A DNA stretch of 64,000 nt, from contig CBDFGH010000008.1 in assembly GCA_965247145.1 (NCBI GenBank), positions 32,345 through 96,344 on the forward strand. The letters run 5' to 3'. The notes beneath the pieces are model-generated. The model saw only the letters and a program-made list of their open reading frames with translations, was not told the DNA's origin and did no database searches. Source of the DNA: Rickettsiales bacterium (GTDB lineage: Bacteria > Pseudomonadota > Alphaproteobacteria > Rickettsiales > JAIXRX01). This document shows, in pieces, positions 1 to 61,553 of this stretch (its first letter is position 1; each line of letters opens with the position of its first letter). Made by a program: the position numbers and the translations under genes.

Positions 1-213
1 CTGAGCATTCCACAGGCGCATGCCATTGCGCGATTGCTGACCTTAGAGGAACTGGACATCGCACGCGAAGCGCTGGAACCGTTCAGAGAGGGCCGTGGGG
101 AAGAGATCAACCGCAAACTGGTGAAACTGGAACAAACCGCCGCTTTCTTAAGCACCACCGACGACATCAACCACATCACCCAGCCGGAACGGGCGTACGA
201 CCGGCCGCGCTAA
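1..213 (+). CDS. 3' end of a hypothetical protein (partial, runs off the window start)
   Basis: Frame 1 is open from base 1 to TAA at 211-213 (LSIPQAHAIARLL...QPERAYDRPR*) and converges on the esterase gene. Confidence 0.55.
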   Translation: MSIPQAHAIARLLTLEELDIAREALEPFREGRGEEINRKLVKLEQTAAFLSTTDDINHITQPERAYDRPR

Positions 214-20660: not shown

Positions 20661-20676
20661 GAAAAGTCTCCTGGTT

Positions 20677-20750
20677 CGTCATCCTGCGCGAAGTCGCAGG
20701 ATCTCTGAATTATCTTGGCACGGAATCCTGCGACTTCGCGCAGGATGACG
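20677..20750. repeat. Palindromic REP/RPE-like element (GTCATCCTGCG subfamily)
   Basis: Same arms as 882-957 with a different spacer. Confidence 0.9.
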
Positions 20751-20762
20751 CGAGCGGCAAAC

Positions 20763-35119: not shown

Positions 35120-35516
35120 GCTGATTTAATCGCCGGAGCGCAAAGAGGTTGGTAAGCAGTAAAATCAATGCCGAAAGGATGGGTATAGGTGTCAATAGAA
35201 CGCCAAATCCGCGTGCTATAACATGGTTGTCGGCACCACCTGGGCCGCTAAAGCTGAAATTGTGCGCATCTGGTAGATTCCAATAGATCCATGCCGTAAT
35301 AAGCGAAACGAGAAGCCGCCATGGAAATCGGCTTTTCTTATAGTCCACTACAACGGAGGTGAGCATGCAAAGGGCAAAGACGATACAGAGGTAAATGTGC
35401 AATGAACTGTAGAAGTTGTCCAAAGCACCATCATTGTCTGGATTTGCTCCAACGGTTCCAGCGGGAACATAGAATGAAGCAGCGATGAGAGATAGCGCTA
35501 CCCAATTTTTTTGCAC
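35106..35516 (-). CDS. AT-rich hypothetical membrane protein
   Basis: GTG overlaps the lysS TAG; signal-like N-terminus and about three hydrophobic helices; stop overlaps the HAD start. Confidence 0.65.
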   Translation of the reverse strand: MQKNWVALSLIAASFYVPAGTVGANPDNDGALDNFYSSLHIYLCIVFALCMLTSVVVDYKKSRFPWRLLVSLITAWIYWNLPDAHNFSFSGPGGADNHVIARGFGVLLTPIPILSALILLLTNLFALRRLNQHAPL

Positions 35517-37105: not shown

Positions 37106-37202
37106 GGGTACGATCTTTGCGAAACTGTAACAATGCGGTGTTAGGTTACTAGCAGCCCCCCCAGCAAAAACCAAGCGCGCTGCGCGTTTGGCAGGTATGT
37201 GC

Positions 37203-43558: not shown

Positions 43559-43664
43559 TCGTGGTGCGATGCCCCTCCCTGCCGGTCGATGATTGCGTCC
43601 GGTCGTGTTGGGCGGCATTATGGAGGCATTGCGCCCATGCGTCAAACCCGAGCAAGGCAAAGCC

Positions 43665-44162
43665 ATGCATACCCCATCCCCGATCCGCATTTCTATGCAT
43701 GCCTGTGCCTCCGAAGCCGCGCTTGGCGAAGAAGCGGCACGGTTGGCCGCGCTGATGCGGCGTGGCGATTGCATCCGTCTGGAAGGAAATCTGGGTGCGG
43801 GTAAAACCAGTTTCGCGCGGGCCGCTATCCAGTCCCTTTCCTGCGAAACGGTGGAGGTGATAAGCCCCACTTTCACCCTGGTGCAATCATATCCCGTGCA
43901 GATGGAAGGCAAACCCATGCTGCTTTCCCACGCCGATCTCTACCGCATCGAAAATGCGGCGGATCTGGAAGAGATCGGGATCCACGAACTGCACCTGCAA
44001 GGCGCGTTGCTGGTGGAATGGCCGCAGATCGCCGCCGATTGGCTGCCGCCGGAGGCGCTTACGCTGCGTTTGTCGCCCGGAGACGGGCCCGGGGCACGCC
44101 TGCTGGAATATCTCGCCACGCCGCAGAGTGGTTGGCAGGCGCGACTGCGGCATGCTAGCTGA
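43665..44162 (+). CDS. tsaE: tRNA t6A biosynthesis ATPase
   Basis: LEGNLGAGKTSFARA, SPTFTLVQSY, HADLYR, VEWP. Confidence 0.95.
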   Translation: MHTPSPIRISMHACASEAALGEEAARLAALMRRGDCIRLEGNLGAGKTSFARAAIQSLSCETVEVISPTFTLVQSYPVQMEGKPMLLSHADLYRIENAADLEEIGIHELHLQGALLVEWPQIAADWLPPEALTLRLSPGDGPGARLLEYLATPQSGWQARLRHAS

Positions 44163-46026: not shown

Positions 46027-49000
46027 TCAACCACCCTTCAGCTTGCATGCTTTGTCGTCTGGATGTTTCACGCAATAAGACGTGGTTTTATCATCGTTCC
46101 CCGAAGACGAGCAAACCGGTGATTTGGGATTGTCTTTGCAGAAACTCTCGCTGCCGCCGCCGGTGGGATTACACATTTCCTTGGTCGGATTGGTCTTGCA
46201 ATATTCCGCCTCGGCGTTGCATCCCTCGCCGCTCGGGTCGAGGGTGCAGCGGTCCAATTCGGTCGTGATGCATTTCTGATAGACCTCCTGCGGCTTCGAG
46301 AAATCACCCTTGCAAACCTCTGCGGCATCGCAATGCGGTTCTTTGGGTTGGGAAGCGCAGAAATCCTTGTCGTCCTTACAAGAGTCGCTGTTGGGGTCCA
46401 GTCCGCACGGGCCAAGCTGGTCGCGGATGCATTCGTTTGAACCGGAATCGACGATACAAGTGAGAGGCTGCTGCGTAAGGCCAGGATTTTCTGGGTCGAT
46501 GCCTGCTCCTTTGTAGAGTTTGTCGCGCGTGCTGCCATCCGGCACGATAGACTTATCGGGGCATTGATGGTCATCCTGGCCTGAACAGACATCGTTCACA
46601 TCGTCCATCAGTTTGTCCACCTCTTCCTGACGGGAACCGGGCATGCTGTCTTTGTCGTAGGCTTTGCGATATTGATCCATGCCATCATAGGGTTGGGAGG
46701 GAACGTCCGGTTTCTCTTCCTTCCCAGGCGTAGGCTTTGCGTCCAAATTTTGGTCGGGCAGCACATTGATCGCGGGAATGAGCTGTTTGGAGATATCGAT
46801 CGGCAGCACGTCGCCTGCGGAGGGCACGTAGCCTTCCACCGGTGTGAAGGTGTAATATTCGCCCGTTACGTTGCCGTCCTGGTCTTTCTTCTGGTCTTTA
46901 TGCAGCAGGTAATGCATCGGATCGGCCTTCTTTTCTCCCTTGATGACAAACAATTTATCATCCGCCGTGATTTTGATTCGGGCATAGCTGTCAAATTTGA
47001 TCGGCTCCTTGCATTGGCTGCGGAAAGAGACGCCATAGGGGAACGTCAATATACGCTCTTTGCCGGCGGGCACCTGCAACAAGGTATCCGGCGGGGTCAA
47101 CACAAGCACATCACTGTCAAAAATAGGTCTTTCCGAGCTGAGTCCCTGCTCGTATTTGGCTTTCAAATCGTCGTCGCCTACCAGATGATTAGTCAGCGTT
47201 ACCTTACCGTCCTTCACTTTCACGGCATTGTCCATGCAGGTTTTGCCCACGTCGTAGCAAGGCGGGAAGATGATATTGGCAACATCGTTCAACAAACCGC
47301 GAATGGCAAAACCGGGATATTTGGAAATAGCGATATCCGGCACACTTTGCGCCGCGTCCGGCTGGATGTCGCGCCCGTTGGGCGGCGTGCGGTTCAAAGT
47401 GGGTGGCATATGCAATTCCACATCCCCCACCACCACAGCCTGGGGACCTGTAGTGCGCTGACTAATAATCGGGCGCGGCAAGCCATCTTTCGGATTGAAG
47501 CCGGAGGTAGCAACCTGGCTGAGTTGAGTACCCAAGGCTGCGGCGCCGCCCGCATACAATGTATCCAACTGTCCTCGTGCACTCATACCCGCGAGATTGT
47601 CCGGGGCGCGCATCAGATCATCCAACGTTGGATTATCCCGAAGGCCTTCGAAACTATACAGTGCGCCCAAGGCATTGAACCCGGGCTTGATGGTCGATCC
47701 GCTATGGACCGGATCGAAATTCACGCCGATATTCACATCCACCGTCAGGCTGAGCAGCTGGCTGCTCTTGCTGCGCGGCACACCCACGAAGCCGATGTAT
47801 GGCTTATTGGCCATGCCGGGGAACATCGTCAGTAGCCGTGCAACCTGCGGATCCGGCCGCAGGCGGGCCAATACACTGAGAGGCAGATGCGAGATCTGGG
47901 AACCGAGGCTGGTGGTTTCATAACCGGGTCCGCGCACGTCGGCCACCACATCATATTTTTCCGCGTTCTTCATGGTATTGCGTGAGGCTGGCGGCGTGTC
48001 ATATCCGGCGGAAAGACAATCCATCACATCCTTCTCCGGAACCAGATGCATTTCATTGGGAGAAACGTTCGCGATATCCACGCGCTGATTGTTATTCGCT
48101 GCGGCGTTCGGGCGCACCATGCAGCCGCCGCGATAATCGTCGCCGTAAGGACGATAGATGCGCACCATGTTCCAGAGATCGAGCCCCTTGGCAGTAACGC
48201 GCGGGTCCTCGAAGCTGCATTCGCGCAGCATCGGGTCTGCCTGACAGCGGGTGTTGTAGACCGCGAAGCTGGTGTGATTCTGTACACTCTGCTGCACCAA
48301 TGCGTTGGTTTCCGAGTCAGGGAAATTGCAATTGGCACCACCCGCGCCGATGCAGCTTTGGAGACGCTTCAACGCAGTGAGCCTTGCAGCGGGTTTGGCG
48401 TTGTTGGGGTCTTCCAACTGAGCGGCATGACGGTAGATGGTCCGGTGACGGGCATTGCCCGCCAACTCGGTAATGCCGCAGGAATCGGGGTATTGCCCCG
48501 CATTGGTCTGCAGCACATGCACCCAATAGCGGTCGCGGCCCGCGGCGTTGGGCTGTTCACCCGGCTCGGCGGGATTGGCCGCGAGATAACTGCTGTCGTT
48601 AAAAGTTTCCGCTACGTAGCCGATGAAGGGTACATATTCGTCCGCAGCCATTTTGAAATTGTCGATGGCTTTTCCATCGCCGATGGGTTGCCGGGTTACA
48701 CGATCGGGATAGGCCACATTGTAATCCGAAGGATCGAGATAGACGATGTCTCCCGGCTGTGCATTGTCCAGGCCGCGCAGCACGGTGGCGGAAGCGCCCG
48801 GACGTTTGGCGAAATTGGGGAAGCGTGTATCGGAAGGAATATCCCAACGGTATATCTTCGAGTTGCTGTCGGGGATGTTGGCGATCTGCTTATCGTCCAT
48901 CTTCGGATCCCACAGGAACCCGCGATGCGACAAGGGCCATGTCACGGTGTGATCCTTGACGCCATTATTGAGCAACACGCTCCCACCGGCCATTTTCAGC

Positions 49001-52000
49001 ACCACGTCTTCCATCATATTCACTTTGTGCAGCTTTTCGAACTGCCCGATGCAATTGAGACCGGTATTGCGGTATGTGCGCGCCTGATACAGCTTCAATT
49101 CGGTCCAACTGGTCAGGGGGTGGACGGTGTTGTCGTTCGGCAGATGCACGCAAGCATCCCCCTTGAAGCGCGTTTTTCCATTGTCCAATGGATGGAAGGG
49201 ATCGTTATGGATGTTGTTCGTTTTATCCAATGCGGGGTCCAGACTTTTCGCTGTGGGATCCTCCTTGCCGAGATAACCCCAGCCGCCGATGCGGCATGAA
49301 CGCTCCGCCGTACCGACACCCACCACACGCACGCGCGCACCCAGATCGCTGTTCAGATCGATGTTCTTGCCGTTGATTGCACCCCACTCAGTGCCGGTAT
49401 CCCACAGTCGCATGTAAGGGCGGTGATCACCGAAATATTCTTCGAAGGTCGTACCTTCGGCAAACATGTTTCGATCTCTTTCCGCCTTGGTATAGGGCGC
49501 CAGGCGTAGCAGATTGATCGGCGCGAGCGGCTTGTTGATCTCGTTGCAGCAATCTTTGATGCTGACCTTACAGGTGTCCTTGCAGAAATCTTTATCGCGG
49601 TCCGGCATGCTACCCGAGGTGCTGCAGGGCGGGAATTTATTGCGTCCCTGCTTGGTGCGATCGGATTTACAGAAACTGACCGTGCCGATCTTGGCCACGC
49701 CCTGCCCCATTGAAGAATCCTTGCCTTTCTCGAACACGGCCTTGAACCCTTTGCGCAGTACATAGCGCGCGGGGAAGCAGAGTTGCGGGAATTTCCCGCC
49801 AAACCAGCTGCCGCAGATTTTCTTCGCCATGGGCCGCAGCGCGTCCTTCCAGAGTGAGCGATATTCGGATTTGAACTGGCTGTAGGCCTCTGAGAAATCG
49901 TAGGTATCGAAGCTTTGGAATATTTCGCGAATCTGGTTCATGTCCACCTGCCCATCCTCGAAAGGATCAAGCGTGCCCGTCAGGAAGCGGAACCACATGG
50001 TGTCGTAGGGATGGCCGGAGAACGATCCGTCCGAACCGCGCTTGCCTTCTTTCAGCAGCAGGATGAGTGCGCGGATCGGATCGATGATGCTTCGGCACTT
50101 ATTTTTACTGTTTCTTGCTTTACAATCTTTGTCCGAACTTTTCTTCGCCACCATCCATAGATTCTTGGCCTCGTTGTGCCCCATGGGATCGAAGAAAATG
50201 ATGTCCATGATGCCGACCACGATGTCGCCGCAGACCGTGATACCCCAGCATGCCGCTTTCGCAATGTAATAGAGCACAGCGCGAATGACTTCGATGATGA
50301 TCGAAATAATCGGCACGCCCTTGACCTCCGACCACAGACAATCGCGGTTGGTGGTGATGCGGCACATGATGCAATTGTCGAAGCGCTTTTCGCGGAAGCG
50401 GAGAATATCCACCGGGGTTGCGGCACAATTCACCGGCTGACCCCAAACGGGTATGCCGTTCATACCGGGAATCCACCAGAAATTTTTCGATCCGCAATAA
50501 TCCGGTTTATTGTTCAAACTCATCGAAACGCAAACATCGTATTTGTCGCGGTCGTTGGTTTCGAAATCCCAGCGCGGCGTGAAGGGATGCGTCACATCCT
50601 TGATCGACTCATAGGGGTTGGTGATCAGATCGGCGATTTGCGGGCGGAAATTACGCTCGCGGAAATTCAGCACGCCGCGCGGCTGGGGTAGATATTTCCC
50701 CGTTTCGTCTTCGTAATAATGGTCGATCCCCGGCGCCACGATCTGCGCATTGGGGTTGTGAATGTATTTGGTGATGGTCGTATCGTTCGGATTGGCGAGA
50801 TACTTTGCGAATTCCGCATTATATTCGTCCATGTAGCTTTCATCCCAATGATTGATCGTCGGGAAATAGATGGCGGGGAAGTAATTATTGACCATCGTGC
50901 CGTACCAGGCGCGTTCCAGATAACGCCACGCGTCATATTCGTGCCGCACGATACCGGTGGATTTGCCTTTGCTGTCGAGCTTGCATTTGCCGGTACTGGA
51001 ATCCCAATCGGACGGATGCTTGCACCGGTATTCGTCCACCATGCATTTGCCGTTGGCGTCTTTCATGCAATCATTGGGCGGAATGAGGCTGAGCGGCTGG
51101 CAATTGGTAGGCGTCATCGAGGGGCGCGACTGGGTGTCTGCGATATAGGTCGGATACAGGCTTTGGCTGGTGATGTATTGATTGGTGCAGCTGTCCAGCA
51201 TCAGACGCGTAAAGAAAGGTGGATTGCAGCCGTGATAGCTGCAGCCCGCTTTGGCAGGGCGGATCGGGCTGCAGGTAATGGCGTTCTTGATGGTGGGAAT
51301 CAGGATCGTCGTCAAAATATTCTGGCGCACATCCTGCGGCAATTTGAAATCGGTCGATTCGTCGCGGGGTGCAGTGTCGGTATCTTCGCGCAATTCGTCG
51401 ACCTCGTCGGTCAGCCACCCGTAGGTGGCAGGCGTGCGTGGGCAGGTGGAGCGCTCCAACCAGCCTTCGTTCAGGTTCAGCGGCGAAACACGCGGGGTGG
51501 TCATCCGCACCAATGTCTTTTCCGGCACCGACCCCGAAACACCGGCGGTCACCGGTTCGAAATTGAAACCGAAACCCAACACGGCGGTTTGCAATTGATA
51601 GCTCGCCTGCAGCAAGGGCGTGCCCAGGCGCTCAGCCGCACTGATATCGCCCGGTATCATTCCGATAGGGCGGAAATTGGTGTAGCGATTGTCACGCGTG
51701 AAACTGTTGATCATCGCATAAAGATTGGATTGCGAGATCGGCCAGACGATGGGCGGAATGCAGTAATAGATGCTGTAGTTCGGAGCGCGCAAGCACATCT
51801 GCTTGCGTAGATCATCGGCCACAGTGAAGAGTCCGGCAAATTTCTCCACCAGCTTGTCCATTTTATCGCGAAGCTTCGGCACCGCGTTAACCTTGGTGAT
51901 AAGGGCCGGAATCTGACCCGCGACTTTTTGGAAATTGAACAAAGCGGCGGGATTGAAATTCACCGAAATGTTCACCGAGGGTGCTACCGCGCCATCCAAT

Positions 52001-54336
52001 GCACGCATGGCGCCGATGGCGGTATTGAGCGGCCCTTTCATGGCCTCCGCTTTGTCCATCAGGGTGCGCATGGCAGGCGGAATGGGCAATACGGAAGGGG
52101 GACAGGTTGCGAGATTCTGTAGGCAGGCTATCGCCGCGCCATGACCCTGGGCGATTACCGTTTGCATGCGGCCCATCGAATCGAAGAAATGCTGGAATTG
52201 TTCCCTCGTGGGAGGGGGGGCTTGATTGTCTTTTCCCGTCAGATCCTTGCCATCGTTTTTGGCACGGGTCGCCTTTTTGAGCTTGTCCATTACATCCATT
52301 GCGCCGTTGAGGCTGCTGAGGTCGAGATTTTTCCCGCTGGCACTATTCAATGCCTTTGCATTTTCCAGCGCGTTGCTGGTCTCCGCCATACCGGAAGCGG
52401 CGCTCTTGGCGTCGTCCATTTTCTGCGCCATGTCGATGAGTTGTTTCAACGATTGCAGCGCACTTACGGCGCTGCGCACGGTCTGTGCAAAAACCACGAT
52501 CTTTCGGATCGTTTTCGCCGCCTCGTAGATTTTGATGAATAATTGAACAAGACCGGTGAAACCGTTCATGCCCAGCATGCCACTGAGAGAGTCGGTAATG
52601 TCGTCCTTGCTTAAACCGTTCTCCCCCGCCGATTCCAATGTGCTGAGCACATCGCCCAGCATGCCGCCGGTGCATGTGCCCGTGACGGAGGAAATGAGGC
52701 TTTTCACCTTGTCGGCGCTGCCATCCAGGTTGTTGGGAATGCTTGCCAAGGCACCCACGGCATTTCTCATGCCGTTTAGCTGGATGTTATAACCGCTCAA
52801 TTGATTGATGGCGGATTTGACTTTCGGGTCGTCGAGCATTTCGACTTCGGATACCGATCGCGTCATCCCGGTCGAAAGGATGCGGTGTTGCTGCATCAGA
52901 TCCTCAATGGCGGAAATCTCAACCGGGTCGGTTGCCTCCGCGGCCATCGCATTCAAATCCGCCCCCAGCGATTTGAAGTTGTCCACATCCGCCTTCGAGG
53001 CCCGGATGCTGGAAATGGCTTGGTCCAAATTCCCAGAGACGATGGCGCTGGCACCGGCCGCCGCATCCGACATCAGACCCACATTGGCCGCCACACTGCC
53101 AAGATCGCCAATCTTACCGATGACCCCATTGACGTCTTTCATCGTTTCGTCGAATTTATCGAAATCATCCGTTTCGCTGGAATCGACATTCAGACAGGCA
53201 TTGTCGTTGCGAGTGACCCCGGTATTGCTCGGCAACGGACATTGGGCCGCCTGGGCGGGCATCAGATCGTCCGAACTGGGTTTCTCCACCGCTTCCGACG
53301 GTTGGGGACCCGCGGCGTTGCCCAGCCTGGGCTCAGGTTGAAGGGTCGATTCGTCGTCACCGGTGCTGGGGGCGGTAATGCTGCCCTGCAAAGGGTCGGT
53401 ATCTGGCGGGTTTTGGGCCGCAGGGCCAAATTTGTTCGGATCTTCGAAACCGGGGTCGTCTGCCGGTTTCTTCTTATTTACCGGCGGTTCTATGCTGGGA
53501 TCGGGCACTAGGCCCTGCATGACCGATAAGGCAGGCGCGGCCATACCCAGCATACCGCCCGTGCCGGAAACACTGGCTGTTTTCAGCAGAGGATCGTTGG
53601 ATTTTTCGCTGTCTTCACGCGGCAGATGCAGATTGTGCAAAATGCGCACCACGCCTTCCGGACCCCCGAAATTTTTTAATGTCACACCTGCTTCGGGGAT
53701 GCGATCGAGGGCTTGGCGGATAAAGGCCTGATCGTTCAGCATCGGGCGCAATTCATCGATGGAAGAACCCACCGCCTGCATGACCGCCTCTAATTCATAA
53801 TAATCCATGCCGCTGATCGAGCCGACCGCTTTCTGCAGCCGGTCCGGCCCCATTTCGGCCAATACTTTGGCCAGACGGCGCCCTTCCTTGGGCAATTCGC
53901 TGATACTCAGATTCGGCACCGTATGCAACGCCATCACCGAATGCAGGGTGGATTCGACATCCGCGATCGCTTTCTCCGACATGCCGCGCATGTGCCGCGG
54001 CAGCATGTTCCAATTACCTTCCAGATACGGCTTCAATTCCGGCTTGGTCTTCAGCATGTCGTTCCAGAAGCCTTTGATATCGGATTCGGTCATGGGTCGG
54101 TCGGTTTTGGGATCGATCATGTAATGATCGCCTTCACGGAAAAATTCCTTGAACTCTTCCATGCTGATGACAGGCTTGCTGCCGTCATATTTCGCATAGT
54201 CCATCGGTGTCAGCGCGCGGGCGGCGGTGGCGGATAAACACAGCATTCCGAGCATTGCCCAACACGCCCAAAGGCGACCATGTCGCCATGCGCCTACTCT
54301 ACCACGAAGGAATTGGGGAGGATGGAATTGGGACAC
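46027..54336 (-). CDS. Giant (2769 aa) secreted cysteine-rich protein of unknown function
   Basis: Uninterrupted 8.3 kb ORF; signal peptide ending ATAARA; many Cys pairs; C-terminal CxxxPxxxxC repeats. Confidence 0.9.
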   Translation of the reverse strand: MSQFHPPQFLRGRVGAWRHGRLWACWAMLGMLCLSATAARALTPMDYAKYDGSKPVISMEEFKEFFREGDHYMIDPKTDRPMTESDIKGFWNDMLKTKPELKPYLEGNWNMLPRHMRGMSEKAIADVESTLHSVMALHTVPNLSISELPKEGRRLAKVLAEMGPDRLQKAVGSISGMDYYELEAVMQAVGSSIDELRPMLNDQAFIRQALDRIPEAGVTLKNFGGPEGVVRILHNLHLPREDSEKSNDPLLKTASVSGTGGMLGMAAPALSVMQGLVPDPSIEPPVNKKKPADDPGFEDPNKFGPAAQNPPDTDPLQGSITAPSTGDDESTLQPEPRLGNAAGPQPSEAVEKPSSDDLMPAQAAQCPLPSNTGVTRNDNACLNVDSSETDDFDKFDETMKDVNGVIGKIGDLGSVAANVGLMSDAAAGASAIVSGNLDQAISSIRASKADVDNFKSLGADLNAMAAEATDPVEISAIEDLMQQHRILSTGMTRSVSEVEMLDDPKVKSAINQLSGYNIQLNGMRNAVGALASIPNNLDGSADKVKSLISSVTGTCTGGMLGDVLSTLESAGENGLSKDDITDSLSGMLGMNGFTGLVQLFIKIYEAAKTIRKIVVFAQTVRSAVSALQSLKQLIDMAQKMDDAKSAASGMAETSNALENAKALNSASGKNLDLSSLNGAMDVMDKLKKATRAKNDGKDLTGKDNQAPPPTREQFQHFFDSMGRMQTVIAQGHGAAIACLQNLATCPPSVLPIPPAMRTLMDKAEAMKGPLNTAIGAMRALDGAVAPSVNISVNFNPAALFNFQKVAGQIPALITKVNAVPKLRDKMDKLVEKFAGLFTVADDLRKQMCLRAPNYSIYYCIPPIVWPISQSNLYAMINSFTRDNRYTNFRPIGMIPGDISAAERLGTPLLQASYQLQTAVLGFGFNFEPVTAGVSGSVPEKTLVRMTTPRVSPLNLNEGWLERSTCPRTPATYGWLTDEVDELREDTDTAPRDESTDFKLPQDVRQNILTTILIPTIKNAITCSPIRPAKAGCSYHGCNPPFFTRLMLDSCTNQYITSQSLYPTYIADTQSRPSMTPTNCQPLSLIPPNDCMKDANGKCMVDEYRCKHPSDWDSSTGKCKLDSKGKSTGIVRHEYDAWRYLERAWYGTMVNNYFPAIYFPTINHWDESYMDEYNAEFAKYLANPNDTTITKYIHNPNAQIVAPGIDHYYEDETGKYLPQPRGVLNFRERNFRPQIADLITNPYESIKDVTHPFTPRWDFETNDRDKYDVCVSMSLNNKPDYCGSKNFWWIPGMNGIPVWGQPVNCAATPVDILRFREKRFDNCIMCRITTNRDCLWSEVKGVPIISIIIEVIRAVLYYIAKAACWGITVCGDIVVGIMDIIFFDPMGHNEAKNLWMVAKKSSDKDCKARNSKNKCRSIIDPIRALILLLKEGKRGSDGSFSGHPYDTMWFRFLTGTLDPFEDGQVDMNQIREIFQSFDTYDFSEAYSQFKSEYRSLWKDALRPMAKKICGSWFGGKFPQLCFPARYVLRKGFKAVFEKGKDSSMGQGVAKIGTVSFCKSDRTKQGRNKFPPCSTSGSMPDRDKDFCKDTCKVSIKDCCNEINKPLAPINLLRLAPYTKAERDRNMFAEGTTFEEYFGDHRPYMRLWDTGTEWGAINGKNIDLNSDLGARVRVVGVGTAERSCRIGGWGYLGKEDPTAKSLDPALDKTNNIHNDPFHPLDNGKTRFKGDACVHLPNDNTVHPLTSWTELKLYQARTYRNTGLNCIGQFEKLHKVNMMEDVVLKMAGGSVLLNNGVKDHTVTWPLSHRGFLWDPKMDDKQIANIPDSNSKIYRWDIPSDTRFPNFAKRPGASATVLRGLDNAQPGDIVYLDPSDYNVAYPDRVTRQPIGDGKAIDNFKMAADEYVPFIGYVAETFNDSSYLAANPAEPGEQPNAAGRDRYWVHVLQTNAGQYPDSCGITELAGNARHRTIYRHAAQLEDPNNAKPAARLTALKRLQSCIGAGGANCNFPDSETNALVQQSVQNHTSFAVYNTRCQADPMLRECSFEDPRVTAKGLDLWNMVRIYRPYGDDYRGGCMVRPNAAANNNQRVDIANVSPNEMHLVPEKDVMDCLSAGYDTPPASRNTMKNAEKYDVVADVRGPGYETTSLGSQISHLPLSVLARLRPDPQVARLLTMFPGMANKPYIGFVGVPRSKSSQLLSLTVDVNIGVNFDPVHSGSTIKPGFNALGALYSFEGLRDNPTLDDLMRAPDNLAGMSARGQLDTLYAGGAAALGTQLSQVATSGFNPKDGLPRPIISQRTTGPQAVVVGDVELHMPPTLNRTPPNGRDIQPDAAQSVPDIAISKYPGFAIRGLLNDVANIIFPPCYDVGKTCMDNAVKVKDGKVTLTNHLVGDDDLKAKYEQGLSSERPIFDSDVLVLTPPDTLLQVPAGKERILTFPYGVSFRSQCKEPIKFDSYARIKITADDKLFVIKGEKKADPMHYLLHKDQKKDQDGNVTGEYYTFTPVEGYVPSAGDVLPIDISKQLIPAINVLPDQNLDAKPTPGKEEKPDVPSQPYDGMDQYRKAYDKDSMPGSRQEEVDKLMDDVNDVCSGQDDHQCPDKSIVPDGSTRDKLYKGAGIDPENPGLTQQPLTCIVDSGSNECIRDQLGPCGLDPNSDSCKDDKDFCASQPKEPHCDAAEVCKGDFSKPQEVYQKCITTELDRCTLDPSGEGCNAEAEYCKTNPTKEMCNPTGGGSESFCKDNPKSPVCSSSGNDDKTTSYCVKHPDDKACKLKGG

Positions 54337-54523: not shown

Positions 54524-55321
54524 ATGCCACAACCCAATCGTAACAATTCGACCGAAGCGCCAGATTTTGCCCAGGCGGGGGAAGTCGACAGCGGCGTGTA
54601 TTTTCAACGTGCCCGCGCCTGGTCGCGCATGTTGTACGATTTTCCCATCGTCGAGCGCAGCTATGCGTTGCTGGCGCTGTTTATCATATGGCTGACGCTG
54701 CTGTTGGCGATCATCATTTTCTTTTCATTCGATCCGCTGGTGCGGCCCGTGCGCGTACCGTTCGAAAACCCCAACAGTGGCGAAGATATACCGCGTATCG
54801 TCACCCTCTCGGGCCGCGACCGCGCACCGCTGCAGAAATCCGTTGCACGCTACATCGCCCAGCATTACGCCGTGGCACGGGAGAATTATCGTTACGATCG
54901 CGAGACCATCGATTCTCAATATCGTCTCGTTTACAATCTGAGCGCACCCGATGTTTTCGATGCCTACCGCAGCACTCTGCAACCGAGCAACCCACAAAGC
55001 CCGCTGGCGCGCTTTGAGCGTCATACGACATTGCAGGCGCTTTATCCCGTCACCGAACTCGAGGTTTCCGCACCGTCCCGTGGGCTGGTGCGCGGTCAGG
55101 CACGCGTGACCTACACAGAACGTATCAACGGTCCGGGCGGCTACAAACAGGCGCGGCGCAGCGCGACCTTCGAATTTACCATGAGCGAAATATCCGTTCA
55201 CAAAGAGGATAATCGTGTCTACCAATACAATGACCAAACCGGGCAGGATGAAAAGCTGACCGGCGCGATTAATTTCCGCGTGACCCGCTATCAATCCCCA
55301 ACCGAGTCGCCCCGCCCATGA
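54524..55321 (+). CDS. virB8: VirB8-family T4SS protein (RvhB8-like, atypical)
   Basis: YFQRARAW N-terminus, single TM, YAVARENYRY, VYNLSAPDVFDAY, C-terminal FRVTRY; coupled to virB9. Confidence 0.8.
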   Translation: MPQPNRNNSTEAPDFAQAGEVDSGVYFQRARAWSRMLYDFPIVERSYALLALFIIWLTLLLAIIIFFSFDPLVRPVRVPFENPNSGEDIPRIVTLSGRDRAPLQKSVARYIAQHYAVARENYRYDRETIDSQYRLVYNLSAPDVFDAYRSTLQPSNPQSPLARFERHTTLQALYPVTELEVSAPSRGLVRGQARVTYTERINGPGGYKQARRSATFEFTMSEISVHKEDNRVYQYNDQTGQDEKLTGAINFRVTRYQSPTESPRP

Positions 55322-56271
55322 TCCTTCATTCCATGATCTCAGCGTTCCGCTCCCTGCCCTCCATGTTGCGTCCGCTCGCGGTGGCTTTGCTGCTGACCCC
55401 CGCACTGGCAGGCCCTGCTTTCGCACTGCGCGACAGCCGGCCGCTGGCCACCGACCAGCGCATTCACACCATGATGTACAGTGCGGATGAGGTCTATAAA
55501 TTCACCGGCCATTATGGCTTTCAATCCACGATCGAATTCGCTGCCGACGAAGAAATCCAGACTATCTCCATGGGCGATTCGGTAGCATGGTTGTTGGAAC
55601 CTTCGGGCAATCGCATTTTCCTGAAGCCACTGGAACAAAACGCCACCACCAACATGACGGTGCTGACCAACAAGCGCAGCTATCTCTTTGAGCTGCATGC
55701 GCGCGAAGCCAGCGGCATCAGCGATCCGCAGCTCGTTTTCGTCCTACGCTTCATGTACCCCTCCGACAGCAACGATTATATTTCCGGGCTGGGATCGATC
55801 GACAATACCGTGCCGGACCTGGACGACCCGGAAGAACGCGGCAAGCTGAACTTCAATTATACTCTGCGCGGCAAGGAAACCATCGCACCGCTGCGGGTGT
55901 TCGACGATGGGGAATTCACTTTCTTCGAATTCCGCAACAAAAACGCCGATGTGCCCGCCTTTTTTCTGGTCGACAGCACCGGCAAGGAAGCCCTCATCAA
56001 CTACCGCACGCGGGGAGACTACATCGTGGTCGAGCGCGTTTGGGGCGTCTATACCCTGCGTCACGGCTCGGATCTGGTCTGCGTGTATAACGAATCTTGG
56101 AACGGCGGTGCGGGCCGCAACGTAGCCGCCGGAGATAAAGTTTCCGCCGCTCCTGTCTCTGCCCGATCCGCTGCGATGAGCGAATCTAGAGGCGACCTAA
56201 AAAACGAGCAGTTCATCACGCCGACCGGTGCGGGCGCCGCAGCGGCGAGCAACGCACCGGTCGGCCGTTAG
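55318..56271 (+). CDS. virB9: VirB9/TrbG-family T4SS outer-membrane core protein
   Basis: Signal peptide, DQRIHTMMY, ISMGDSVAW, RIFLKP, TNMTVLTNKRSYLFEL, NFNY, VFDDGEFTFFEF, INYR. Confidence 0.93.
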   Translation: MILHSMISAFRSLPSMLRPLAVALLLTPALAGPAFALRDSRPLATDQRIHTMMYSADEVYKFTGHYGFQSTIEFAADEEIQTISMGDSVAWLLEPSGNRIFLKPLEQNATTNMTVLTNKRSYLFELHAREASGISDPQLVFVLRFMYPSDSNDYISGLGSIDNTVPDLDDPEERGKLNFNYTLRGKETIAPLRVFDDGEFTFFEFRNKNADVPAFFLVDSTGKEALINYRTRGDYIVVERVWGVYTLRHGSDLVCVYNESWNGGAGRNVAAGDKVSAAPVSARSAAMSESRGDLKNEQFITPTGAGAAAASNAPVGR

Positions 56272-56277
56272 CCTGTC

Positions 56278-57048
56278 TTAGTTGCGGCGCACACAGCGTA
56301 TTGGGAAACTGTTACCGCGACCGTAATTCTCATATGTGCCGTAACGCATCTGAATGCGCATAACGTCCGAGTCGTTCAGCTCGCTGGAGGTCCAATACGA
56401 AGTGCTGTCGCTTTGAACGAACCCATAGGCAGCTCCCAGTTCATATTGATTGTTGAACAACACACCCATTTCGTACGAAGTGGGTAGATACCAGTCTGTA
56501 TGACCGCCGTAATTTAGGTTTTTGCAATAGAAGTGCGCGGGATAGTTGCTGTTGGCCAAGCTGCGTGTGCCGGGATAACCGTAGCGCATGATATTGCCCA
56601 TGTTTGGATTGCCACCGCCGGATTGCCATTGCATCGAAGGGTCGGTGCCGGCGCCGGTAGGAGAAGCGCAACTGGGTGCGGCGGCGGTTCCGGTGCAGCC
56701 CGCCGGGCTCACTACCAAATTGCCGTCTCCCGCAAAAATTCCGCCGCCGCAATCGCTGCCGATGACGCCGCTACAGAGGGTTACGGTGTAGGTGCCGTCG
56801 GCGCCGATCAGTGGCACGCCATACATGCGGCTGTCGGTGGTGCCGGGCGCAGCGATCACCGTGGTGGTCGTCGTGGTCGTGCCCGTGCCGCCCGGTTCCT
56901 TCCAATCGGTGCCGTTGCAGAAATAAAGTTTTTTCAGCGCGCTGTCATACCGCAACGATCCTTCCGTGCCGGACGGCGAAGCGCAGGCGGCTTGTGCCTC
57001 GATGGGCAATGCAAACATTGCCAGAACGAGAAAAATAAATCCTTTCAT
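56278..57048 (-). CDS. Secreted DUF1566 (Lcl C-terminal)-like protein
   Basis: Signal peptide; YCKNL..GG..DWYLPT.YE...YWTSSE...IRCVRR signature. Confidence 0.82.
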   Translation of the reverse strand: MKGFIFLVLAMFALPIEAQAACASPSGTEGSLRYDSALKKLYFCNGTDWKEPGGTGTTTTTTTVIAAPGTTDSRMYGVPLIGADGTYTVTLCSGVIGSDCGGGIFAGDGNLVVSPAGCTGTAAAPSCASPTGAGTDPSMQWQSGGGNPNMGNIMRYGYPGTRSLANSNYPAHFYCKNLNYGGHTDWYLPTSYEMGVLFNNQYELGAAYGFVQSDSTSYWTSSELNDSDVMRIQMRYGTYENYGRGNSFPIRCVRRN

Positions 57049-57061
57049 GGGGTCTTCCTCT

Positions 57062-57862
57062 CTAATTGCGACGTACGCAACGGATGGCGTAATTTTGGTC
57101 TTTGGTGTCGATATTGGATTGCCCCCCTGTCGAGGTCGGATCTCCAGGCCGTACGAGGTAATGGTATGCCGTTACATGGTGGAAACGCTGCCCGTTATAT
57201 GCTTCGCTCGCCGACATATAATTGATGTTGTAGCCATTGTAATATGACCCCCCGATATCGGAAAGCGACTGCACGAACAATTCCGTTTCGTACAAGGTCG
57301 GCACATACCAATCGCTGTAGGTCACACCGCCCACGCTGAAAGACAGATTCCGGCAATATTGGAAAGCGGGATAGTTGCTGTTGTTGTTCGATTGGTTGGT
57401 CGCATAGCCATAGCGTTGACTCGACATGGTGGTAGGGCTGTTGGAGGTTTCGTAGCGGTTGTAATAAGTGTCCCGCCCCGCATAGGGTGCCTGAGTAACG
57501 CCGCCCACCGTTTCGGTCGGGCAGGTCGTGCCACTGCAGCCCGCACCCGTGGCCACCAGATTGCCGTCCCCGATGTAGAATCCTCCCCCGCACCGGCTGC
57601 CGATGGCGCCGCCGCAGAGATTGACCACATTGCTGCCCCCTGCCCCGACAACGGGAATTCCGTTCAATAAATTCGGCGCTCCGGCAGTATCGACGACCCA
57701 GTTGGTGCCATCGCACTTATACACTCTTCGTTCGGCGCTGACATATTTGTAACTGCCCAAAACGCCAGCAGGGCTTGAGCATGCGGCCCAGGCGGCTTCG
57801 GAAAAACCCATGCACAGAAATGCCATGGCGAGAGATAAACGAAACGTGAGTTGATTCATCAT
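57062..57862 (-). CDS. Secreted DUF1566 (Lcl C-terminal)-like protein, paralog of 56278-57048
   Basis: Signal peptide; YCRNL...DWYVPTLYE...YMSASE...IRCVRRN. Confidence 0.8.
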   Translation of the reverse strand: MMNQLTFRLSLAMAFLCMGFSEAAWAACSSPAGVLGSYKYVSAERRVYKCDGTNWVVDTAGAPNLLNGIPVVGAGGSNVVNLCGGAIGSRCGGGFYIGDGNLVATGAGCSGTTCPTETVGGVTQAPYAGRDTYYNRYETSNSPTTMSSQRYGYATNQSNNNSNYPAFQYCRNLSFSVGGVTYSDWYVPTLYETELFVQSLSDIGGSYYNGYNINYMSASEAYNGQRFHHVTAYHYLVRPGDPTSTGGQSNIDTKDQNYAIRCVRRN

Positions 57863-57868
57863 ACTATC

Positions 57869-59632
57869 CTAATTGGCAATGCACCCCATCCATCCGCTGG
57901 GATCGGCACTCATGCGGTAGATATGGCTGGTACTGTTGAAGATATCGCCCCAGTTGCTGCCGTTTGCGCAGCTCTGCGACTCGGGTGGGCGCTGCCCCGC
58001 ACAACTTGCTGGACATGCTTGCGTTGTGGCGGGTTTGTCGCCGGGGACACAGGTCGCGCCACTGGGGCAATAGACAGTGCGCGTCTGCACCGAACCGGTC
58101 GCGTTGCAGCTGACGGAGCGGGTTTGGAAGCCGCCGCCGCAGGTATTGTCGCAGGTCGTCCAGCTGCCTGCATCCCAGAAAGGTAGAGGGGCGCAGCTGC
58201 CCCAAGGACCGGCCACCCAGCCACCGCAGGGCTGCGCGTTGCAGCTTTGCGATTGCGCGGGCGAAGAGCCGCAACTGCTGACGGTGCAGCTTTCGCTGGA
58301 ACTGGGTTTCACTCCATCGCACACGCCGCTGGCGCAGGTGGGGGTGCGGGTATGAATACCGGTACGGCTGCGGCAGGAAGCGGTGCGGTATTGCGTACCG
58401 CTGCCACAGGTAGCGCTGCACTCGCCCCAATCCGAAAGCTCCCAGTCTCCCACGGTGATGGTAACGCCGGCACTGTCTTTACACGCACTCCATGCGCCCG
58501 GATCCCAGGCATTGGCACATGTGCCTAGATTGCAGGCTTTCTGCGAAGGCGGCGGGGTGGTGGTACAGCCGGTGAAGGGCCGCGAGGTGGGCGGTTTGGG
58601 CGCCAGACAATCGACACCGACCGTCTGCGAACAGCTCGTTGCACCCGCCACGTTCACACAATCTACGTTGAGGCTGAGCGTGCCGCTTGCGGTGGAATTG
58701 CAACTGACCGTGCGGCTTTGCACGCCGTCTCCACAGCTTTGGGAACACGCGCTGTAACCCATATCCGGCGTGCCGTTGTTGTATGTGGTTCCCGCCGCGC
58801 CGTTGATCGCGTTGATGCTCCATTCGCCGCCGGGCGTGGTTCCGGTAGTCGGCGTCACCGACCATCGGCATTCCTGGCTTTTGGATTTGGCATTCTGAAA
58901 GGAGCGACCCGCCAGAATGAACGCGGCATTGCATTTACGCCCGACATTGGCGGCGTAACCGCGTGTGGTCGCATCGCGGCATGCGCCGGCGGTTACGCCA
59001 TTGCCTTCCTCGACCACCATCTGCCCGTTGCTGGGCGAGCCGTCATCGATCATGCGGTCGATGCGCTCGGCTTCTTCCGGTGTGAGCGGCCCACTGCCGC
59101 TGGTTTCGGTAAAAGAACCGTCCGCTGCGGTGATTTGAATCAAGTGGATCACGGCAACCACGCGGTCGGGTTTACGGCCTTCGATGGTCAGGGCCGCACC
59201 GGAACCCGCCGCGCTGGGCGGATAGACTTTGCCGATATTTCGGCTATTGGCGCTGAGCGTGAATTTTATCAGGCCAGCACGGGAAAGATGTTCCCAGAAC
59301 AGGCGCTGCTCGAGCAAAGCCTGCGCCGGGTCGTCGCTTGCCAGATCGATGCGGCCATTGCCATTGCCGTTGCAGCCGCTGCAGGCGAAAAGGCCGCTCG
59401 CATCCGAAGTATCGCCAGGGAAGGAATTGTAGCGCTCCTGATAAATCTGCACGGCGCGGCGCAGATCGGCCAATTCCTTAGCCACGTTGCGCAGCGCCGC
59501 GTCGCGCGTAAGGCTGCTGGCAGCCAGAGTTCCGGCCACGATGAAGCCGAAAATGGCCAACACCATGGCCATTTCTATGAGGGTGAAGCCGCGACGTTTT
59601 CGAACCGATGAGGGGTGGTGCGCTACGGACAT
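57869..59632 (-). CDS. Prepilin-type (type IV pilin/pseudopilin) protein with C-terminal thrombospondin type-1 repeats
   Basis: RKRRG|FTLIEMAMVL cleavage motif; pilin head (YNSFPGD, IDRMIDDG); WGECSATCGSGTQYR and WTTCDNTCGGGFQTR TSP1 motifs. Confidence 0.9.
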   Translation of the reverse strand: MSVAHHPSSVRKRRGFTLIEMAMVLAIFGFIVAGTLAASSLTRDAALRNVAKELADLRRAVQIYQERYNSFPGDTSDASGLFACSGCNGNGNGRIDLASDDPAQALLEQRLFWEHLSRAGLIKFTLSANSRNIGKVYPPSAAGSGAALTIEGRKPDRVVAVIHLIQITAADGSFTETSGSGPLTPEEAERIDRMIDDGSPSNGQMVVEEGNGVTAGACRDATTRGYAANVGRKCNAAFILAGRSFQNAKSKSQECRWSVTPTTGTTPGGEWSINAINGAAGTTYNNGTPDMGYSACSQSCGDGVQSRTVSCNSTASGTLSLNVDCVNVAGATSCSQTVGVDCLAPKPPTSRPFTGCTTTPPPSQKACNLGTCANAWDPGAWSACKDSAGVTITVGDWELSDWGECSATCGSGTQYRTASCRSRTGIHTRTPTCASGVCDGVKPSSSESCTVSSCGSSPAQSQSCNAQPCGGWVAGPWGSCAPLPFWDAGSWTTCDNTCGGGFQTRSVSCNATGSVQTRTVYCPSGATCVPGDKPATTQACPASCAGQRPPESQSCANGSNWGDIFNSTSHIYRMSADPSGWMGCIAN

Positions 59633-60663
59633 GTCGAACCATCCTTCCAATCGCCATCGCAGCAGATCAAGGTGGTGCCGGAAGTGCCTTTCGCTCGTGT
59701 ATCGCCGTGGCGTATGCCCCCCGCTGCCAAAGGAAGCGGATTGGTGCCGGTAAACTTGATGCGCTGCACGCAATTTTCCGGTTGGTTCTTCATGACTGTG
59801 GTTGCGCCCGAGGGCTCGTAGCCGCAACGTACAGGCGGCTGGCAATTTCTCTTTTCCACCAGTATCGGCACTACGACATCGTCGAATACGCCATCTTCGT
59901 TGTGCCAGTTGTCGGCGGTGTAGCGCTGCAGATCGCTGTCGAAATCGCAGTTGGTGGAATCGTAGCCGTTGGCGACGCAACTCTGCATGGTACCGTAAGA
60001 ACTGATGGCGCCGTTTTGGTTGGGCCCGGCACTGATGAGCAGGCCTACCGGGCGTTGCACACCGGCATTGAGCAGCGGCCAACCGCGCAGATCATTGGGC
60101 GTGGTGCTGCCCACGCTGTATATTTGGAACGGCGATCCGTAGGCGGTGGGCAGGACGGTGGGCGAAACACCGGCCGTGGTATTGGCCAATTGCGTATCCA
60201 TCACATAGACGATCTTATTTCCCCAGCCGTCCAGCATCGCGTCTTGCGGCAGGTTCAAGGCCATCACCGGCACGGCGCCTGCCACCACGGTACTGCCGGC
60301 ATTGCAGAATACGCCCTGGTAACTCTTGGTGGTGGGGTCGCAATTACCAGGAATGGCGGCTTTCCAGCAATCCAGCACTGGCTTTTGGAAAGCGGTGGCG
60401 GTGTAGGAACGGTCATAGCGTGCCGGGCATGGCAGAATGCGGTGCCCGACATCGTATTTGCTGTAATTCTGGATCGCCAGTTCGATCATGCGCAGCCGCA
60501 CCTGGGTCGTGCGCAGGCGTTTGCGCGACTCACTCGCTTCGTTGGGCAGAAGCAGCACCACCGCCGCACTCAGCACCAGCAGAATCGCGGCGATGGCGAT
60601 CAAGGTGAACCCCGCCTCCGAAGCATGCGAGCCGATGATGGGGCGCGGGGGCGCGGGGTGCAT
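59623..60663 (-). CDS. Prepilin-type minor pilin/pseudopilin lacking Glu5
   Basis: EAG|FTLIAIAAIL; LPCPA, GAVP...L.LP, DGWGNKIVY, LISAGPN, FDDVV. Confidence 0.87.
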   Translation of the reverse strand: MHPAPPRPIIGSHASEAGFTLIAIAAILLVLSAAVVLLLPNEASESRKRLRTTQVRLRMIELAIQNYSKYDVGHRILPCPARYDRSYTATAFQKPVLDCWKAAIPGNCDPTTKSYQGVFCNAGSTVVAGAVPVMALNLPQDAMLDGWGNKIVYVMDTQLANTTAGVSPTVLPTAYGSPFQIYSVGSTTPNDLRGWPLLNAGVQRPVGLLISAGPNQNGAISSYGTMQSCVANGYDSTNCDFDSDLQRYTADNWHNEDGVFDDVVVPILVEKRNCQPPVRCGYEPSGATTVMKNQPENCVQRIKFTGTNPLPLAAGGIRHGDTRAKGTSGTTLICCDGDWKDGSTCP

Positions 60664-60665
60664 CG

Positions 60666-61553
60666 CTAAAATTGATACGCGGTTTTCCAGCGCACGAAAT
60701 CATCGAAATACGTCGCGGTGGTATCGCTGTAGGTGATGGTGGCGTCGCGGAAAATATTGTTGAACTGGGGCACGGTGATATGGGCATTGGTCTCCTCGAT
60801 CGGACCGCCGCCAATGGTGCCGATGGTGCTGATATTGCGGCGCGCTATGCCGCTGGTGGCGCGATTCGCCCAGGCACCGAAACCGTTGGCGCCATAGGAA
60901 AACAAGACGTAGACCGCCCGTGCGCCCGGCCCCACGGCAGCACAATCGCCGCCGCAATTGGTTTTTTCGTTGCCGTTGGCGTCCTGAATGATGATCGCCG
61001 CCGCGCCGGCAGCGGTGGTGTCCGTGTTCCAGCAAGTCGTCGCGCTTGTGACGCCGCGCGTGTAATTGTTATCCACCACATACATGATGCGATTGTTCCA
61101 GCCATCGAACGCATAGGCATCCGGTATGCTCAGCGTGCGCGTGGGCACCACCCCGACCAGAGTATAACGCGCCTGATCGACGTTGCCCGATCCCCAACAA
61201 GCGGCGGCGCGAGTGCCGTTGCCGAACGCGTAATAGGCATTGGGATGTCCGCCCGCGCAATCCTGCCGCCCGAAGGGGTTCGAGGAAACTTCGTCGATCC
61301 CCGCATCACCCCGCGCTGGACAAGGCAGCGTGCCGTAAGTCTGCACATACAATTTTAATGCATCTTCCACGCGGTCGAGGCGATTGCGCGTTTCCTCTAC
61401 GCGGCCCGCCTGCAGTTTATCTGCATAAATGGAAAGCCCGCCGCCCATGATCACCGCGATGATAGTGAGCACGATGGCCAGCTCGATCAGCGTAAAACCC
61501 ACGCGGTTTGCGCGCTGGGCGACATGCAGAGGTGAGGGGTGGAAATGCGGCAT
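60666..61553 (-). CDS. Prepilin-type N-terminal cleavage/methylation protein
   Basis: RVG|FTLIELAIVL; LPCPA, GVVPTRTL, DGWNNRIMY, SYGANG, FDDFVRW. Confidence 0.92.
   Translation of the reverse strand: MPHFHPSPLHVAQRANRVGFTLIELAIVLTIIAVIMGGGLSIYADKLQAGRVEETRNRLDRVEDALKLYVQTYGTLPCPARGDAGIDEVSSNPFGRQDCAGGHPNAYYAFGNGTRAAACWGSGNVDQARYTLVGVVPTRTLSIPDAYAFDGWNNRIMYVVDNNYTRGVTSATTCWNTDTTAAGAAAIIIQDANGNEKTNCGGDCAAVGPGARAVYVLFSYGANGFGAWANRATSGIARRNISTIGTIGGGPIEETNAHITVPQFNNIFRDATITYSDTTATYFDDFVRWKTAYQF

Follow-up and report, generated by a model that had tools for sequence, protein, structure and literature searches.

Thrombospondin type-1 repeats (TSRs) are among the best-studied extracellular modules of animals and apicomplexans, each repeat being regarded as a bead of about 55 residues that is complete in itself. 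Modular type IV pilins, in which a module is grafted C-terminally onto an N-terminal pilin module, are described in Streptococcus sanguinis, where PilB carries a vWA module and PilC a lectin module; display at the filament tip and a role in adhesion have been proposed for them (Raynaud et al. 2021, PMC8179133). Here, we describe a protein in which the two kinds of module are combined. It is encoded on the minus strand, at positions 57869..59632, of a 64,000-nucleotide stretch (the window) from the genome of a Rickettsiales bacterium (assembly GCA_965247145.1, contig CBDFGH010000008.1). This 587-residue product, the TSR pilin, is probably a modular type IV pilin-like protein with a stalk of strand-extended, double-length TSRs. 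Like the S. sanguinis proteins, it joins an N-terminal pilin module to a grafted C-terminal one but, unlike in PilB and PilC, the grafted module is a TSR-derived rod and not a globular vWA or lectin domain (PMC8179133). Its head also differs from the S. sanguinis modular pilins in belonging to a family from alphaproteobacterial metagenome genomes. The main text of PMC8179133 makes no use of the word 'thrombospondin'; the paper's Dataset S1 of 264 architectures may list a TSP1 architecture.

The gene was delimited from its reading frame and start site, its Pfam matches and its full-length homologues. A TTG at 60082 opens the longest frame, whose initial 150 residues are rich in Arg and coincide with the upstream gene, which is read in a different frame. 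An AAGGA-type ribosome-binding site lies 9–10 bases upstream of the ATG at 59632, and this ATG overlaps the stop codon of the upstream gene. We take the product to start there and to be 587 residues long, with its stop codon at 57869..57871. The initial annotation had been confined to 57869..58870, which corresponds to residues 255–587 plus the stop codon of this frame; all of the sequence strings that it quoted are present in the translation. Of the 34 Cys residues of the protein, 30 lie within the last 333 residues.

Both halves of the protein match curated families. Residues 1–35 (59528..59632, minus strand, as are all parts of the protein) form a prepilin leader with a G|FTLIE cleavage and methylation motif, corresponding to the G|F-x-x-x-E pattern of class III signal peptides with Glu at position 5, followed by a hydrophobic α1-N helix. 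N_methyl (PF07963) matches residues 11–35 at 28.8 bits (cut-off 21.2) and the generic prepilin motif TIGR02532 scores 26.4 bits (cut-off 16.3). A phmmer comparison with the PDB aligns the N-terminal helix with the N termini of solved pilins (9egp_A, E 0.0035), and the sequence match to solved pilins is limited to this helix. Residues 36–254 (58871..59527), with four Cys, appear from paralogues and relatives to be a pilin-like head that serves as a carrier module. The separate extra module that follows, residues 255–587, matches TSP1_ADAMTS (PF19030) in three stretches at 79.6 bits (cut-off 23.8) and TSP_1 (PF00090) at 32.2 bits (cut-off 21.6). The pilin fusion read from the DNA alone is therefore borne out, as N_methyl, TIGR02532 and TSP1_ADAMTS all score above their cut-offs in one frame.

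The stalk comprises three units and a C-terminal cap: unit 1 (residues 255–372, 58517..58870), unit 2 (373–469, 58226..58516), unit 3 (470–555, 57968..58225) and the cap (556–587, 57872..57967). Each of the three units has the Trp strand, the CSxTCGxG turn and the Arg strand; in units 2 and 3, both of these strands are doubled. To place each piece on the TSR fold, a canonical hidden Markov model (HMM) of 54 positions was built from 120 ADAMTS-type TSRs, and 28 double units from 12 proteins were cut at their Cys residues and run against it piece by piece. The first Trp piece falls on HMM positions 1–9 in 25 units (1–7, 3–9 and 6–8 in the other three), with scores of up to 9.8 bits, at which single matches are not significant. 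The second Trp piece and the Arg strand attached to it fall on positions ~1–24 in all 28 units (9.7–33.9 bits). The second Arg piece, taken up to Cys7, starts again at positions 14–16 in 27 units, with position 49 or beyond reached in 24, and the piece after Cys7 finds its best match in the last third of the HMM in 24 of the 28 units. Thus, with A, B and C standing for the Trp, Arg and closing strands, every TSR segment comes twice and the order is A A B B C C; units 2 and 3 read A1 A2 B2 B1 C1 C2. Neither a tandem pair (A B C A B C) nor a nested insertion (A A B C B C) would give this order.

This arrangement is conserved. Aligned with one another, the 28 units have 10 conserved Cys columns, 4 Trp columns and 2 Arg columns, and all ten Cys are present in 23 units. 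Unit size is about 90 residues (86–118), so that the unit is not the self-contained, 6-Cys tandem A-B-C module of about 55 residues. The spacing between Cys residues varies strongly at two places only, Ca–C1 (11–20 residues) and C4–C5 (4–25 residues), the sites of the junction linker and the top turn in the architecture predicted below. Elsewhere it is tighter: C1–C2, 3–4 residues; C2–C3, 8–12; C3–C4, 11–13; C5–C6, 10–14; C6–C7, 3–8; C7–C8, about 9; and C8–C9, about 4. The constancy of the C3–C4 interval fits a continuous strand and not a loop. The initial annotation had seen interleaved rather than tandem TSR elements, with two Trp, two Arg and two closing strands per unit and a degenerate first unit, and in all of this it agrees with the Cys-cut pieces, their profile mapping and the alignment. 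It had also proposed that one TSP1 domain is inserted within another, and this fails on the order of the segments, which is A1 A2 B2 B1 C1 C2 and not A1[A2 B2 C2]B1 C1. That interpretation is partly supported: right in spirit as regards an interleaved, elongated, disulfide-locked structure on a pilin, and wrong in 'nested'.

Two relatives bear on how such units are built. P0153, a non-pilin protein of 1178 residues with bacterial Ig-like domains, contains a triple-length unit at residues ~860–1000, made of three pieces each of the Trp and Arg kinds and three closing Cys pairs that follow the same nested order, which is the outcome expected from modular strand extension. In unit 3 of P0003, the equivalents of C509 (C3) and C544 (C7) are both lost, and this joint loss is the sole support for the disulfide pattern predicted below.

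We modelled the stalk with AlphaFold2 in two ways. The whole 333-residue stalk, with a 6-row alignment, gave a mean predicted local distance difference test (pLDDT) of 65.6, with values of 75–84 for units 2 and 3, 47–68 for unit 1 and below 50 for the cap. Units 2 and 3 alone, with a 12-row alignment including non-pilin carriers, gave a mean of 82.4 (77–82 over the five models), with 109 of 216 residues at 90 or above; unit 2 lies at 85–97, unit 3 at 74–91 and the cap again below 50. DSSP assigns strands 41–44, 47–50 and 52–57 in the 12-row model, placing the two Arg strands of unit 2 one non-strand residue apart, a gap too short to accommodate a hairpin. The 6-row model repeats this collinear pattern.

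The predicted fold class is that of TSRs. When the 12-row model was compared with solved structures using VIA-align, the first 35 rows were all TSR entries, in line with the elongated TSR-like fold foreseen from the DNA, and the three-stranded TSR fold is present in the predicted model. The best row is Sema5A TSR4 (8ckg_A; Z 5.5, root-mean-square deviation (rmsd) 2.2 Å, 48 residues aligned), and further rows include BAI1 TSR3 (44/44), F-spondin TSR4 (56/56), C6, UNC5, properdin and TRAP. Rows of single TSRs align 40–58 residues over model positions 10–28..95–99, a span of 76 residues of which about 25 are skipped; it begins at the second Trp strand and ends with the unit's last Cys. In unit 2, single TSRs align on model positions 21–25..97–99 (residues 392–470), and for unit 3 the rows fall on residues 223..305 of the 6-row model. 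From this span, the third strand of the inner repeat would be the last closing piece of the unit and not the adjacent second Arg piece.

A wide search of 48,161 PDB representatives again placed TSRs at ranks 1–17, and in this set no solved chain covers the whole unit well. Rows that do extend over the whole unit are weak (Z 2.0–2.2) and come only from long, few-stranded β-rods: the SasG E-G5 segment (5dbl_A) and the aerolysin-type proteins 1w3a and 6lhz. The SasG row (75 aligned, Z 2.2, rmsd 4.8 Å) does not rise above the noise of the aligner. SasG of Staphylococcus aureus is likewise a long, thin, few-stranded β-rod that projects an adhesive end, a functional analogy and not a membership; unlike the TSR stalk, to which it has no sequence relation, it has neither disulfides nor a Trp/Arg ladder. 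Foldseek with the 333-residue model returned TSR proteins only, with no match at E ≤ 1e-3 and an rmsd of about 30 Å for these multi-domain rods, and thus speaks to fold class only; the ESM Atlas returned only eukaryotic TSR clusters, whose scores of up to 0.90 serve as leads only.

We compared the unit directly with canonical TSRs, namely Sema5A TSR4 (8ckg), TSP-1 TSR2–3 (1lsl and 3r6b), BAI1 TSR3 (7r84 and 7r85) and F-spondin TSR4 (1vex). They have in common the W-x(4)-W strand, the CSxTCGxG turn, the Arg strand and a K-P closing strand with CxxxxC, and the predicted inner half superposes on them with an rmsd of 2.1–2.8 Å over 44–56 residues. The canonical repeat has about 55 residues and 6 Cys in the order A-B-C and occurs in tandem, whereas the unit here has about 90 residues and 10 Cys and is arranged A A B B C C. 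We consider it most likely that the stalk is a new, strand-extended variant of the TSR fold carried by a modular pilin.

In the architecture that we propose, all three units, of which unit 1 is degenerate, would be double-length TSRs in which three continuous strands run the length of the unit, A1–A2 down, B2–B1 up and C1–C2 down. Two Trp/Arg layers would thereby be stacked on three common strands; tandem TSRs are instead joined by one chain crossing. Loops are foreseen at two places only, the linker at the A1–A2 junction and the top turn between B1 and C1. Residues 255–587 would form a thin stalk stapled by 15 predicted disulfides. For unit 2, the predicted bridges are 384–449 and 420–454 at the junction, 433–438 at the top, and 405–464 and 409–469 at the bottom. 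In this pattern, each half would keep a C1–C5-like and a C2–C6-like bridge, and a junction bridge, C3–C7, would be added, joining the end of the inner Arg strand to the end of the first closing piece.

In more general terms, the stalk may exemplify an undescribed bacterial way of lengthening TSRs, A1..An, Bn..B1, C1..Cn (n=2 here, n=3 in P0153), that gives rigid rods, one of which has here been joined to a type IV pilin to serve as the stalk of a stand-off adhesin; on this broader proposal we regard the case for and against as evenly balanced. Such rods would have three chain crossings and two disulfides at each junction. A TSR layer is about 5 nm long, and on that assumption the stalk would measure about 25–30 nm.

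Two other readings of the repeats need to be weighed against strand extension. The stalk could consist of three conventional TSRs with Cys-rich linkers, the extra Trp and closing pieces being decorations that form no second layer. Pfam reads the sequence in this way: it puts residues 397–454 on the complete TSP1_ADAMTS profile (1–55), which, by sequence alone, would make a conventional TSR with Cys-rich flanks possible, and finds partial matches on 486–541 and 293–326. The canonical HMM also places the stretch from the second Trp strand to Cys7 on positions 1–54 in 7 of the 28 units, and the second Arg piece may resemble strand C of classical TSP-1-type repeats. We nevertheless consider this reading unlikely, given that in both AlphaFold2 models the solved TSRs align as far as 97–99, beyond the Pfam end at residue 83 of the model, that is, residue 454. 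The extra pieces are moreover as conserved as the core (10 Cys columns, 4 Trp columns and fixed spacings), match the start and the end of the TSR profile, reach pLDDT values of 85–97 in unit 2, and are each increased by one of their kind in the triple version of P0153. The span of the single-TSR alignments, which speaks against the Pfam reading, also speaks against a true nested insertion, in which a complete inner TSR would sit in a loop of an outer one as two separate three-stranded domains. In sequence, the Trp-b/Arg-b pair is indeed flanked by Trp-a and Arg-a, and the stretch from the second Arg piece onwards occupies profile positions ~15–54, as the remainder of an interrupted outer repeat would. 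Yet nesting needs an inner closing strand before the outer Arg strand, and none exists, because C3–C4 is fixed at 11–13 residues; in the model, the third strand of the inner repeat is the final piece of the unit, and the two Arg strands are collinear by DSSP. We therefore hold nesting to be highly improbable.

Several observations count against strand extension itself, besides the complete Pfam match. DSSP leaves four non-strand residues between the Arg strands of unit 3, making their collinearity less clear than in unit 2, and unit 1 is poorly modelled, at the pLDDT of 47–68 given above. The alignment behind the better model is shallow (12 rows), its predicted template modelling score is 0.45, and its Z values of 4–5.5, of which 5.5 is the best, fall in the range that the aligner rates as middling. 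The topology is drawn from the DSSP string, the ends of the alignments, the spacings and the logic of the sequence rather than from measured strand pairings or Cys–Cys distances, and the joint loss of C3 and C7 amounts to one event, seen in one protein.

The three units are not equally regular. Unit 2, a 10-Cys double-length TSR by its segment-to-HMM mapping, AlphaFold2 and DSSP, consists of Trp strand a (376–384), Trp strand b with the CSxTCG turn and Arg strand b (397–420), Arg strand a (423–433), the top turn to C438, closing strand a (439–454) and closing strand b (455–469). Unit 3, a second double-length TSR by AlphaFold2 and VIA-align, matches unit 2 over its whole length in BLASTP (35% identity, E 8e-15), and its tenth Cys is probably C584, which is located in the cap. 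Unit 1 is a degenerate double unit by its PF19030 match on residues 293–326 and the family alignment; its similarity to unit 2 is limited to the central 41 residues (E 1e-5), its first Trp segment has no Cys, and its C255 and C334 are confined, in the family alignment, to the TSR pilin and P0002. The cap, at the far end of the stalk and defined by family conservation, has a Trp, a Gly-Asp, an Asn-Ser and a final Gly-Trp-x-Gly-Cys, kept in five of the six family members and shortened in P0014. The stalk is rich in Ser, Thr and Gly.

How might such a protein be used? The leader, α1 and head (residues 1–254) would be a carrier that inserts the protein into a type IV filament, and the stalk would be a stiff spacer that keeps the cap, and perhaps the Trp/Arg faces too, at a distance of tens of nanometres from the filament, where the displayed parts could bind a surface or a host ligand. 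With its 32 residues, the cap is, we infer, the best candidate for the binding part. The net charges of units 1, 2 and 3 are 0, −2 and 0, and that of the cap is −1. A heparin-binding role by analogy to some animal TSRs was considered and set aside because the stalk has no net positive charge.

The genetic context bears on this function. The TSR pilin is the third gene of a tight run of five on the minus strand. Gene 1 (60666..61553) encodes a 295-residue pilin-like protein with a G|FTLIE motif (PF07963, 25.9 bits), and gene 2 (59623..60663), which overlaps the start of the TSR pilin gene, a 346-residue pilin-like protein whose motif is without Glu5 and which matches no Pfam family. Downstream, gene 4 (57062..57862) encodes a 266-residue secreted protein with a signal-peptide-like N terminus and a weak Lcl_C (DUF1566) match (19 bits, cut-off 34.9), and gene 5 (56278..57048) a 256-residue secreted Lcl_C-domain protein (49.4 bits, same cut-off) with weak NCBIfam matches to adhesin Lcl and a fimbrial tip adhesin, both far below cut-off. 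These last two proteins (56278..57862, minus strand) both carry Lcl_C at the C terminus and have a common Cys-containing motif at the N terminus.

A metagenome scan found one further locus, L030, in which the TSR pilin P0073 adjoins orthologues of the 295-residue (38% identity, E 2e-60) and 346-residue (27%, E 2e-31) genes; the Lcl_C genes were not found in this locus, the one other context compared. Minor-pilin sets include a member without Glu5, as in GspK/PilX-type subunits, and by analogy the conserved pilin-like trio, which also includes such a member, is as would be expected of a minor-pilin set. A complex prediction for the 346-residue protein and residues 1–254 of the TSR pilin scored 0.00 twice, for a mark of 0.32, and the controls were unfolded, so that it bears on binding in neither direction.

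The genome (2.36 Mb, 11 contigs) encodes both prepilin peptidase and assembly ATPase: two A24 prepilin peptidases (Peptidase_A24) and six T2SSE-family ATPases, among them a 628-residue PilB/GspE-type frame (406.9 bits) and two of PilT size. It also has two DsbA-family genes. The head domain (residues ~4–259) has 14 further matches in the genome. Five of these paralogues, of 278–312 residues and without an extra module, lie in one locus (L031, G000:C3:119500-132500), among housekeeping genes of sucA/sucB/lpdA/icd type, and the family occurs at nine other places in the genome. The L031 paralogues and the TSR pilin have a Gly/Asn/Asp-rich Cys motif and a DDG motif in common.

With the stalk structure kept as proposed, the protein could still be something other than a pilus adhesin: a pseudopilin-like protein of a type II secretion-like system, or a protein that uses its prepilin signal for anchoring or export only, with the stalk serving, for example, as a matrix or envelope spacer. 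Its N terminus, apart from the generic motif, has only weak NCBIfam matches to GspH, GspI and GspG, far below cut-off; 14 further head matches in 2.36 Mb are many for classical minor pilins; and the window holds no assembly genes, the TSR pilin being surrounded by housekeeping genes, VirB8/VirB9 and FliP. Against this, Glu5 is present, two further pilin-like genes are conserved beside the TSR pilin, and the genome has the PilB/GspE-type and PilT-size ATPases; pilins with adhesive C-terminal modules are, furthermore, an established kind (PMC8179133). On balance, we judge a role outside a pilus to be quite unlikely. Two points nonetheless weigh on the pilus adhesin side: we infer both the entry of the TSR pilin into a filament and its position at the tip, and the stalk's lack of net positive charge leaves heparin-type binding, as in some animal TSRs, unsupported.

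The fusion is rare. Two homologues that match over the full length, P0002 (64% identity) and P0003 (42%), came from a word-indexed search of 5.8 billion clusters. When the 333-residue stalk was compared exhaustively, using HMMER, with 1.84 billion representatives, 847 proteins matched at E ≤ 1e-3, among the best 150 of which P0014, P0016 and P0073 have the architecture of a pilin followed by three units. At least six proteins thus carry the pilin fusion, and the homologues are metagenome singleton clusters with no specific protein name. The outcome that the initial annotation had named as undoing its proposal, an architecture already catalogued as a common bacterial family, does not apply to the carriers found. 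A second word-indexed search, with a profile of the six proteins, gave 10 proteins, with no new family member among the best 8000 candidates. The two sequencing runs that contain the sequence come from one study, and neither is an RNA run.

The double unit also occurs outside the fusion. By a strict pattern, it is present in 13 of 172 collected homologues, all of them metagenome singletons without a specific protein name. An HMM of the 28 units recovers the same 13 proteins at 36–89 bits, followed by seven borderline eukaryote-like arrays at 28–33 bits; canonical tandem proteins match it only in part (~11–48 or ~15–78) at 11–28 bits. Among the bacterial-looking matches, the non-pilin proteins with the 10-Cys unit are P0034, P0061, P0077, P0099, P0116, P0153 and P0171. 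Double units alternate with ordinary TSRs in P0061, P0077 also contains LamG and RCC1 repeats, and P0116 is lipoprotein-like. Recent acquisition of the TSRs from a eukaryotic host was considered; the top eukaryote-like matches of the stalk, at 36–41% identity, are plain tandem arrays.

Among genomes, PF19030 was found in none of 14 controls and in 6 of 400 others of the same class, from three genera, with no further match in the organism's own genome. The 333-residue stalk matched none of 60 relatives of the same order, and of 400 further genomes from the phylum one matched units 2 and 3, in a stretch that holds five stop codons. A scan of genome contigs gave only relatives of the head domain (eight loci, residues 1–240 matched). 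TSRs are thus infrequent in this class, though the TSR pilin is not their sole carrier, and their fusion to a pilin is very rare; in these samples, the remark that TSP1 repeats are uncommon in bacteria stands.

The six genomes with PF19030 encode tandem-TSR surface proteins (L021–L026) that, like the TSR pilin, are bacterial and secreted and score above the TSP1_ADAMTS cut-off. They differ from it in being signal-peptide proteins with single-length repeats, no pilin motif and no double units. One of them, a 609-residue protein (L023, G441:C27), has a C-terminal segment that looks Hint/intein-like by eye. In a full-text literature search of a limited library, neither bacterial TSR pilins nor lengthened or interleaved TSRs turned up as the subject of a paper; the one pilin paper in it that mentions thrombospondin does so in a general remark only.

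If the proposed architecture is correct, the Trp/Arg ladder of TSRs can be extended as one continuous three-stranded ribbon, giving a natural, disulfide-stapled nano-rod of tunable length, and TSR rods join the effector modules that type IV pilins can display. Annotation would be affected as well, as standard domain calls give 'three TSP1 repeats', with about 40% of the stalk then unaccounted for. The proteins also add bacterial data to the question of the origin of TSRs.

The rest of the window is housekeeping in character, with FliP on the other side of the pilin run. VirB8 (40 bits) and VirB9/CagX (208.7 bits) genes, at 54524..56271 on the plus strand, converge on the run; no other type IV secretion genes were found among the nearby reading frames scanned. 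Between these genes and an APH/nucleotidyltransferase pair lies a reading frame of 2769 residues (46027..54336, minus strand) with a signal-peptide-like N terminus, and at 40178..43918 (minus strand) there is another of 1246 residues with an Ala/Lys/Pro-rich stretch in its first 300 residues; neither has a Pfam or NCBIfam match at the thresholds used. A DsbD gene (DsbD_N, DsbD_TM and a thioredoxin-like domain) adjoins one for an AhpC/TSA-type redoxin at 20013..22907 (minus strand). The window thereby holds a periplasmic disulfide-isomerisation path as well as a protein for which 17 disulfides are predicted. Class I lysyl-tRNA synthetase is uncommon in bacteria; the window encodes one at 35516..37405 (minus strand; PF01921, 447.9 bits), which fits the alphaproteobacterial relatives of the head domain.

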